64,000 bases of DNA, taken from positions 608,001 to 672,000 of the forward strand of contig CAVULX010000003.1 in NCBI GenBank assembly GCA_963742415.1, given 5' to 3'. The number at the start of each line of letters is the position of its first letter. Within the stretch, counting starts at the first letter, position 1. Below are positions 50,057-51,688 of the stretch, piece after piece. The translations under genes and the position numbers were made by a program. The notes below the pieces were generated by a model. It saw only the letters and a list, made by a program, of their open reading frames with translations, had not been told where the DNA came from and made no database searches. This DNA comes from an uncultured Parachlamydiaceae bacterium (GTDB lineage Bacteria; Chlamydiota; Chlamydiia; Chlamydiales; Parachlamydiaceae).

Positions 50057-51688
50057 TCAAAGTTTACTACTTTTTACACTCGCTTCAATACGTTTTTTAC
50101 GACGAAATTTAGTTACATCATCCACAGCTAATTCTAATTGTTTATTAGCTTTTTGTATAGAATTTAAATTCATCCGCTCAGTTAATGGAATTTTATTTCC
50201 AGTCAAAGAGATTGTTTCTAATATAGCTCCTATTCTTTGAGCTTGTAAAATTTCTTTTGCTTGTTGCTTTGTGGGTTTTAATCCTATAGCTTCTTCTTTA
50301 TAAATAACATTATGATATATATCAGTTACGGTTATGCTAGTTAATGTTACAATTTGTAATTCAAATATAACCCCGGTTTTAAGATCCCTAATTGTACAAG
50401 GAATGGCCTTATACGCACCATCTTTTCGAATTGTCGAATACTTATTATCAAGTTCTAAAAATTCAAAACCATTAGAATTCAATTTGTCAATGACATCATT
50501 TATTTGCTCTGGATTATTGCATGTAATCCTACATCCATTAACGTCAATAATATCTAAAGTCGAGTGGTATTTTGGGATGTCTTGAGCTTGAGTTATGCTT
50601 GTAATACGCCCACATTTATCTAAGATTGATTGAGGCGATTTAGTTCTTGCAGTGATTGTATGCCCTTGAGGACCAAATAGATGAATTAAGCGACCGACAA
50701 CATCAATCAAGTCTTTTTCGTTTTTCTTTTGAAGTTGTGTTAAAGCTTTAAATCCCTCATTAGAAATTCTTACAACGCGATTTCTGGCATCAGGCACTTT
50801 AAGATATGTATAATTCTCATCTTGAAAATTTTTTTTATTTCCCATTTCTTTTGATTTATAATCAGAAGGAAATAAAGCGATACCCCTCTCCTTCTCATTC
50901 GTAGAAAAAGTTAATAGTTTTTCAATATTTTCCGAAGAAATACCTAAGTTTGAGTAATATTGATCATGGAGTTGTCTAATTGATTCGAGTTTAGGTTCTA
51001 CAGTTTTAATTTCAATCACGTTTTTTGCTTTTTCTTTTGCTGTGTACCTGTCAAAGTTAATTTCAATATAGTCATTTAAGAAGTCGTTAAATAGATCGAT
51101 TTTATTTGTAGTAATTGTATCAATAATTTTATTTGAATTGGCTATTGTAACATCATTCAAATTATTTAGAATGTTACCAACATGGGTCGATTTTTCAGGA
51201 TCCCTTAGATATTTTTGTAAATCCATTGGATGGGATTCATCGCAATAGAACTTGTGCATTATGTCTTTTAACGAGGGTTTGTTATAGAAATTTAAGTCAA
51301 CAGACTTTGCACCAACTTCAAAGATCAGTCGATTTTCTAATAAAGCACAAACCTTTGCGCTCTCTGGCTTCTCTTCTGCCACTGTTTCATCTCTTATTCG
51401 CCTTAGTTCTTCAACTGTTTCCTTTGCAATTTGATGGATTTCAGCGATTGAATGTCCCGTTTGAATTTGATCGATGGCTTGAGTTGCAACAGCAGCCATT
51501 TGGACTTGGCAAGAAGTCTTAGTAAGAGAAGATTGTAAAATAGAGTGAAGTTCGGAAGGCCAGCGCGAGGCTGACAGTTGTAAGAATTTATCGACAATGG
51601 TCTTATTAGGGGATACCGCGGGTACGTGGGAAGATCCTGAAGAATAAAAAGATGTTTTAAGATCTCTATCTCTATTAGGAGTAATCAT
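50057..51688 (-). CDS. RelA/SpoT-type synthetase-domain protein (SAS/toxSAS-like) with long N-terminal extension
   Basis: RTKSPQSILDK, DIIDVNGCRI, GAYKAI, FELQIVT, HNVIYK; no HD hydrolase, TGS or ACT domain recognised. Confidence 0.82.
   Translation of the reverse strand: MITPNRDRDLKTSFYSSGSSHVPAVSPNKTIVDKFLQLSASRWPSELHSILQSSLTKTSCQVQMAAVATQAIDQIQTGHSIAEIHQIAKETVEELRRIRDETVAEEKPESAKVCALLENRLIFEVGAKSVDLNFYNKPSLKDIMHKFYCDESHPMDLQKYLRDPEKSTHVGNILNNLNDVTIANSNKIIDTITTNKIDLFNDFLNDYIEINFDRYTAKEKAKNVIEIKTVEPKLESIRQLHDQYYSNLGISSENIEKLLTFSTNEKERGIALFPSDYKSKEMGNKKNFQDENYTYLKVPDARNRVVRISNEGFKALTQLQKKNEKDLIDVVGRLIHLFGPQGHTITARTKSPQSILDKCGRITSITQAQDIPKYHSTLDIIDVNGCRITCNNPEQINDVIDKLNSNGFEFLELDNKYSTIRKDGAYKAIPCTIRDLKTGVIFELQIVTLTSITVTDIYHNVIYKEEAIGLKPTKQQAKEILQAQRIGAILETISLTGNKIPLTERMNLNSIQKANKQLELAVDDVTKFRRKKRIEASVKSSKL

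Follow-up and report, generated by a model that had tools for sequence, protein, structure and literature searches.

Toxic enzymes belonging to the RelA/SpoT homolog (RSH) group are described in several arrangements that share the logic of a toxin with a cognate neutralizer. In the FaRel2/ATfaRel2 pair of Coprobacillus sp. D7, a small alarmone synthetase that is toxic (toxSAS) and has a SYNTH fold forms a two-gene module with a small structured partner of 73 amino acids; in CapRel of phage SJ46, a tRNA pyrophosphokinase of phage defense, the antitoxin is fused C-terminally to the enzyme; and in Tas1/Apk1-Tis1 a (p)ppApp synthetase of a type VI secretion system is paired with an adjacent immunity protein. 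RelA/SpoT-like domains are also found in polymorphic toxins and exported alarmone synthetases, and RelQ and RelP, of about 210 amino acids, are ordinary small alarmone synthetases. In textbook accounts, chlamydiae stand as the phylum that has no RelA/SpoT enzymes. This article concerns an RSH-type gene and its small partner gene in an uncultured Parachlamydiaceae bacterium (GenBank assembly GCA_963742415.1, contig CAVULX010000003.1, forward-strand positions 608,001 to 672,000; this 64,000-nucleotide stretch is called the window, and coordinates refer to it unless prefixed by the name of a locus, L, which denotes a contig stretch of a relative). The two genes probably, if with some reserve, constitute a toxSAS-like toxin and neutralizer pair with an active pyrophosphokinase, and the module was apparently acquired horizontally by a chlamydia otherwise devoid of RelA/SpoT machinery. 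The toxin-type interpretation is based on the conserved partner gene, the toxin-domain relatives, the sporadic distribution, and the lack of a hydrolase, and not on the enzyme's motifs.

A preliminary description of the interval 50290-50660 had reported a synthetase domain with a preserved ATP/Mg side and a substituted acceptor side, and had proposed from the latter a product other than ppGpp. The interval lies inside the minus-strand open reading frame (ORF) 50057..51688, which encodes a 543-amino-acid protein (P0001), and corresponds to residues ~343-466 of it; the ORF is intact in translation. Residues 348-466 are recognized by Pfam RelA_SpoT (PF04607) at 44.8 bits, where 27 are required, and an E-value of 1.7e-11. 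The donor-side and Mg-side strings are present as had been reported (R348-T-K350-S-P-Q-S354-I-L-D-K358, D382-V-N-G385-C-R387, and E443-L-Q445), as are the acceptor-side strings G424-A-Y426-K-A-I-P430, E443-L-Q-I-V447-T448, and T455-D-I-Y-H459. Correspondences were taken from an alignment of the family profile to Bacillus subtilis RelQ (5dec/5ded/5f2v), in which GYRSYH of RelQ aligns with AYKAIP, so that the Tyr is kept while Ser is replaced by Ala or Val and His by Pro, and EIQIRT aligns with ELQIVT, with Arg replaced by Val or Thr. The third change that had been read at this side, from WAxxEH to TDIYH, concerns a string that is indeed there but a motif that is not lost: EHSLNYK of RelQ pairs with YHNVIYK, and its His (H459) is retained.

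Conservation was counted over non-gap residues among 20 aligned family domain sequences. R348, K350, K358, D382, G385, and R387 are identical in 18/18, and E443, Q445, Y426, and H459 in 19/19; the ATP/Mg residues and the Tyr are thus invariant across the family. The G-loop retains its stacking Tyr (Y426) together with basic neighbors (R421, K422, and K427), as in alarmone synthetases. Pro occupies position 430 in 17 of the 19 domains, with one His and one Ala, and position 447 is Thr in 14, Val in two, Ala in two, and Cys in one of the 19, and is never Arg. The positions at which the canonical His and Arg are replaced are therefore themselves conserved, and the pattern is not due to chance. 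It would be open to a different interpretation, namely that the domain is catalytically dead and has been kept for binding, or is a decaying remnant, given these replacements and one homolog that is split by insertion sequences; this is very improbable, because the ATP/Mg residues and the stacking Tyr are invariant in 18-19 sequences that share only 35-52% identity, the ORF is intact, and the replaced positions are conserved too. The agreement with FaRel2 is detailed at this level, as its R64, K66, S70, K74, R77, D90, G93, R95, E145, and Q147, as given for its donor site in PMC11782079, correspond to R348, K350, S354, K358, R361, D382, G385, R387, E443, and Q445 of the chlamydial enzyme, which also keeps the G-loop Tyr.

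The partner gene encodes a putative neutralizing protein (P0017; Table 1). A homologous gene of 80-99 codons stands beside the RSH gene at all five distinct loci of the family, namely the window, L002 (the same locus as L009), L003, L008, and L004 (the same as L007), and at four of the five it follows immediately downstream at a distance of 7-18 nt, whereas the L004 copy is found behind an inserted transposase gene. The partner homologs share only 19-28% identity but display a clear common pattern, with V4, E6, S20, Y22, G53, and L59 conserved. All seven are acidic (pI 4.5-6.6), and the SYNTH domain together with the C-terminal part has a pI of at least 8.5 in 10 of 14 enzymes. A database search returned these seven partner proteins only, none with a Pfam domain, and no longer, fused forms of the partner were found, which is weak evidence. 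The AlphaFold2 (AF2) model of the partner (pLDDT 84.8) has the order b1-b2-a1-b3-(short a)-b4-a2, and the topology reported for ATfaRel2 is b1-b2-a1-b3-b4-a2 (PMC11782079). ATfaRel2 is also the best structural match of the model, although a weak one with a Foldseek E-value >1, and hhalign of the partner family against CapRel gives a Prob of 0.3. In view of these weak individual scores and of a missing motif considered below, the ATfaRel2-like fold is regarded as suggestive and consistent with how the genes are arranged, and not as proof. The two modules have no detectable sequence similarity, and the chlamydial toxin is longer by ~290 N-terminal residues; CapRel differs in that its antitoxin is fused, the chlamydial partner being a separate gene. 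In two loci, second, diverged partner copies lie by the module (L003:320-589, minus strand; L008:687-968, plus strand) and are reminiscent of extra immunity genes.

Table 1. Features of the two-gene module in window coordinates.
Feature	Position	Strand	Basis or remark
Partner gene, 83 aa (P0017), pI 5.3, putative neutralizing (antitoxin/immunity) protein	49788..50039	-	start 17 nt past the RSH stop
AGGAG ribosome-binding site	50046..50050	-	6 nt before the partner ATG; read from the minus strand
RSH-type gene, 543 aa (P0001)	50057..51688	-	TGA stop 50057-50059; ORF list, translation, Pfam RelA_SpoT
Residues 1-29, disordered polar N-terminus	51602..51688	-	AF2 pLDDT <50; columns unconserved, variable among homologs
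Residues ~30-260, all-helical N-terminal domain, family-specific	50909..51601	-	AF2 helices 27-258; no Pfam family above cut-off
Residues ~290-500, SYNTH fold; Pfam core 348-466 = 50291-50647	50189..50821	-	AF2 model, structure searches
Residues 508-542, long C-terminal helix, basic tail	50063..50167	-	AF2 helix; tail from translation

The enzyme itself was modeled by AF2 with a pLDDT of 82.9 and a pTM of 0.81, and structure searches with the model confirm a SYNTH fold. The leading rows, whose columns carry no labels, read 12.5, 208, and 5.8 for CapRel (7ztb), 11.4, 179, and 3.6 for RelP (6ewz), 11.0 for RelQ (5ded), and 10.7 for SaEAS (8vx3). Tas1 ranks below CapRel, RelP, and RelQ and appears only in Foldseek (6ox6, E 4.8e-3), and the FaRel2 toxin chain is not among the listed matches. 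The structural comparison that the preliminary description had suggested thus recovers CapRel, RelP, RelQ, and Tas1 but does not separate subfamilies: CapRel leads RelP and RelQ by about 1 Z unit, and since the top rows are near-tied the fold by itself assigns no subfamily. By sequence, the best matches of the family profile among solved structures are RelQ and RelP (E 1.3e-4 to 5.9e-4), and a profile was required, as a single-sequence search of solved structures returned no RSH chain and two spurious matches. Similarity to CapRel between profile and sequence is marginal (hhalign Prob 5%).

The family to which the enzyme belongs is small and sporadic. A word-indexed search returned 11 homologs at 35-52% identity, and an exhaustive profile search of 1.84 billion representative proteins yielded, at E <1e-30, 10 full-length family clusters and five fragmentary ones, 15 in all; the named genome records are all chlamydial metagenome-assembled genomes (MAGs), labeled Parachlamydiales, 'Chlamydiae bacterium', or Rhabdochlamydiaceae. 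Within the phylum, PF04607 matches were obtained in 7 of 401 genomes and the family in four (G000, G098, G267, and G077, in the last of which the copy is split by insertion sequences), the others being two genomes with a long RSH and one with a different divergent RSH. The 543-aa protein is the only PF04607 match in its 2.69-Mb genome of four contigs, in which no HD_4 hydrolase was found at a completeness of 84%. The G + C fraction is ~0.31 in the two-gene stretch versus 0.42-0.45 in the flanks. Published surveys agree with such rarity. Atkinson 2011 (PMC3153485) records zero RSHs among 15 Chlamydiae taxa and a phylum without RSH signaling of its own, and the analyzed part of the census table of Jimmy 2020 contains 14 Parachlamydiales genomes without a synthetase, 10 with no RSH and four with only a Mesh1 hydrolase; the string 'Chlamyd' does not occur in the main text of the latter paper. 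No paper describing this chlamydial family was found in the literature. Sequencing runs gave small DNA shares of the module in soil metagenomes only, and no RNA run was listed with it.

Several observations on chlamydial RSHs stand apart from the module. Full long RSHs (HD_4 + RelA_SpoT + TGS + ACT) are present, as assembled, in 2 of the 401 genomes (L005:790-2478 and L006:757-2970), although the phylum is usually described without them. The divergent RSH-like protein of G340 (L010:841-1971, minus strand; 377 aa) has its RelA_SpoT match of 27.7 bits N-terminally, at residues 70-144, followed by a long unrelated C-terminal part, and falls outside the family studied here. In a Rhabdochlamydiaceae MAG (L004:2927-8171), a 553-aa transposase gene on the opposite strand interrupts the RSH homolog, leaving an N-part of 387 aa and a C-part of 172 aa, with MVTARVKSARSFLDKCG on both sides; the C-part is followed by a 412-aa transposase-like ORF and then by an intact 81-aa partner gene. 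According to the supplement of an mBio article of 2025 (PMC12691689), one Parachlamydiaceae RelA_SpoT protein, A0A7W1GVR9, is Apk1-like, with SGYVGVH and AELQIHL; it is unrelated to the present family, so that toxin-type RSHs of more than a single kind may occur in chlamydiae.

An ordinary small alarmone synthetase that provides a (p)ppGpp stress signal, with the downstream gene an unrelated or regulatory neighbor, would account for the above-cut-off Pfam match, for RelQ and RelP being the best sequence matches among solved structures and structurally tied with CapRel, and for the donor motifs, Tyr, and basic G-loop residues that are conserved and shared with these enzymes; certain exported toxin-type enzymes also yield (p)ppGpp only, as reported in PMC12691689. 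With the NCBIfam RelQ equivalog (NF053588 GTPPhKinYjbM), however, the score is 19.9 bits where 320 are required, and the chlamydial protein departs from RelQ and RelP in its length, its His-to-Pro and Arg-to-Thr/Val replacements, and its toxin-like genomic context. An additional N-terminal region of 290 residues, the rarity of the family with one copy broken by insertion sequences, the low G + C relative to the flanks, the lack of an RSH-type hydrolase to switch a signal off in the genome as far as it is complete, and an acidic partner gene conserved and tightly coupled at all five loci argue in the same direction. It is accordingly unlikely that the protein is a housekeeping (p)ppGpp synthetase, and this alternative as a whole is regarded as improbable.

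The nearest relatives by sequence are the RelA/SpoT-like domains that occur in polymorphic toxins (Zhang et al., 2012, PMC3482391) and in exported alarmone synthetases (Ahmad et al., 2025, PMC12691689). Matches outside the family score 35-95 bits in the profile search, and in 104 of 128 such relatives (in 32 of the 47 that are at least 700 aa long) no more than 60 residues separate the end of the domain from the C-terminus. A Pfam scan of the best 46 of 129 non-family matches identified WXG100_2 in four, PT-HINT in one, Gln_amidase in two, annexin repeats in two, and a cNMP-binding domain in one; one relative is a named Nocardia aurantia toxin protein. The annexin proteins, P0056 and P0057, combine the repeats with a C-terminal RelA_SpoT-like domain, P0057 having five repeats (217 bits). 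These toxin domains share with the chlamydial family the motifs Y-[RK]-V-I-P, E-L-Q-x-T-T, and H-N-x-x-Y-K as well as the position at the C-terminal end, and for such toxins a small downstream gene has been reported (PMC12691689). The resemblance does not extend to the N-terminus. By Pfam, at E-values up to 1, no trafficking module (WXG/LXG, PAAR/Rhs, MuF, or DUF4157) was found in P0001, and its N-terminal domain is not polymorphic, since in the profile search it was never joined to another C-terminal or toxin domain. Apk1/Tas1, SaEAS, and AaEAS differ in their motif strings, AaEAS (LXG) having SGYRDLQ and AEFRLHL of Apk1 type. With Tas1/Apk1-Tis1 the module has in common the fold and the logic of a toxic RSH enzyme with an adjacent cognate inhibitor, but the structural match is weaker, the partner is unlike Tis1 among the matches listed, and no PAAR/Rhs is present. 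In a FastTree phylogeny of 142 domains, the chlamydial family forms a separate monophyletic clade with a support of 0.97. Rooting on CapRel places it near the base; its position relative to the toxins is not settled by the tree, and because the CapRel root is too distant no donor lineage is inferred.

The N-terminal region has no Pfam family above cut-off. Conservation extends from about residue 120 onward, e.g., in an FYxDExHPMDLQ block, and in the profile search the region matched only family members or fragments. Fold searches with the whole-protein model returned generic helical bundles and designed proteins only, at residues 56-136, and a search of the ESM Atlas with residues 60-340 gave best scores of 0.76-0.77 without an informative match. 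The helical domain probably regulates or targets the enzyme. Ser, Thr, Pro, Asn, Gln, and Gly make up 15 of the first 30 residues, and the leaders are polar and variable in length and sequence across the family. Such a disordered N-terminus could serve as a signal for a type III secretion system (T3SS), with the helical domain targeting the enzyme within a eukaryotic host (an amoeba or similar), where SYNTH would pyrophosphorylate host tRNA or use up host ATP/GTP and the partner would be an immunity protein or a chaperone until export. Such an effector is in keeping with the nearest relatives, in most of which the domain is the C-terminal part of a long protein and some of which also have export or toxin modules, with the prediction of RelA/SpoT-like domains in plant-pathogen T3SS effectors such as XopAD (PMC3482391; PMC12691689), and with the record of chlamydiae as lacking RSH signaling of their own (PMC3153485). 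N-terminal disorder, however, is unspecific; the N-terminal domain contains no eukaryote-directed module recognizable by Pfam or the ESM Atlas; and the window contains no neighboring T3SS genes. The partner, with its b-b-a-b-b-a order, is smaller than class I T3SS chaperones and has another order of elements, and no such chaperone appears among the best 50 fold rows of the partner, although the last point is a weak one. A secreted effector is considered rather unlikely on this balance, yet a serious rival as regards the deployment of the enzyme. A more specific version, in which the effector silences host translation by pyrophosphorylating the universal 3'-CCA terminus of the host's tRNA or depletes its ATP/GTP by conversion to (pp)pNpp, and in which a pZFD-like immunity protein silences it within the bacterium, is clearly less probable again; if true, no RSH activity would have been described in the phylum before it, and it would be the first case of an intracellular bacterium turning a toxSAS-type enzyme on eukaryotic cells. 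Between the two sites of action, one within the producer, as a toxin-antitoxin or defense module, is modestly favored over export.

The replacements on the acceptor side had been regarded as evidence of an altered, possibly new, acceptor. Both the GYxSxH His and the Arg in ExQxRT are presumed to contact the acceptor; these residue roles were looked for in the literature and not found. The comparisons do not carry the proposal. CapRel of phage SJ46 reads RRLKRLSTIIDK, DIGGCR, SGYSGIH (GYSGIH), and EVQLRT and hence has a canonical acceptor side, unlike the chlamydial enzyme, and because it is nevertheless a tRNA 3'-CCA pyrophosphokinase the substitutions do not predict the product. Among the 128 nearest relatives outside the family, the His position is occupied by Pro in 48, Thr in 36, and His in 26, and the Arg position by Thr in 65, Arg in 14, Lys in 11, and Ser in 10; Pro and Thr are thus not peculiar to the family, and the motif argument fails on this ground too. 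According to a preprint by Kurata et al. (10.1101/2021.04.30.441581), tRNA-using toxSASs are without a clear sequence signature and (pp)pApp synthetases possess one. For enzymes of the Apk1/Tas1-like group, as for the exported enzymes that they studied, Ahmad et al. (2025, PMC12691689) report products that may be (p)ppApp, (p)ppGpp, or both. The product cannot be told from the sequence. Estimates were instead derived from base rates among characterized toxic RSHs and from the coupling of pZFD antitoxins with tRNA-targeting toxSASs described in PMC11782079, set against the alarmone-synthetase-like basic G-loop. By these, the 3'-CCA of tRNA is the foremost candidate while still falling short of an even chance; adenosine nucleotides, giving (pp)pApp, are distinctly less probable, guanosine nucleotides, giving (p)ppGpp, are similar to these or slightly behind, and some other acceptor has only a slim chance.

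A mechanism for the toxin-neutralizer pair can be proposed from residue correspondences and by analogy with characterized modules. The 543-aa protein would be an active ATP-dependent pyrophosphokinase in which R348, K350, S354, K358, and R361 are predicted to hold the donor ATP and D382 and E443 the Mg2+; a purine nucleoside stacked on Y426 would receive the pyrophosphate at its 3'-OH. The acidic 83-aa partner would bind the enzyme and keep it off, possibly by covering the ATP donor site as ATfaRel2 and the CapRel pZFD do, and enzyme that is freed from it would be expected to stop growth.

Other observations weigh against this interpretation. The YXXY motif needed for neutralization by ATfaRel2 and CapRel is not conserved in the partner alignment. 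Nothing comparable to the ~290 N-terminal residues, with their variable, disordered leader, exists in known toxSAS toxins of toxin-antitoxin pairs, and this region would be in keeping with a secreted effector. The basic R421, K422, and K427 by the G-loop Tyr are RelQ-like and fit tRNA no better than they fit a nucleotide as the acceptor, the positive patch near the Tyr being reported as larger in alarmone synthetases than in FaRel2 (PMC11782079). PADLOC and PHROGs provided no meaningful match for either the RSH protein or the 83-aa partner. Finally, a promoter and terminator scan counted 11 promoter-like sites where 10.2 were expected and 0 terminators.

The module is situated between an exosortase/DUF3485/glycosyltransferase cluster and rarA-aroK-aroA. 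The former (44574-49804, plus strand) consists of genes for a 699-aa TPR protein, an exosortase of the EpsH family (87 bits), a 181-aa membrane-like ORF, DUF3485, and a group 1 glycosyltransferase, and resembles a chlamydial locus for polysaccharides and for protein sorting of the exosortase type. In a synteny check, 16 of 21 genomes had a RarA homolog, and in the loci of 11 relatives a distance of 1.5 kb took in neither AroK nor the glycosyltransferase nor the module; the flanks are therefore not conserved, and the check has no bearing on insertion.

What is familiar in this system is the fold and the logic of toxin and neutralizer; what is new is the lineage, the N-terminal domain, and the partner family. 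The product of the chlamydial enzyme would tell whether the YR/KVIP and ELQxTT signature, which is shared with uncharacterized toxin domains and whose meaning published toxSAS alignments could not settle, marks a particular acceptor. If exported, the protein would represent a new kind of chlamydial effector. A conserved RSH enzyme, catalytically intact as judged by its residues and equipped with a partner and a private N-terminal domain, adds a lineage to the toxic alarmone synthetases.

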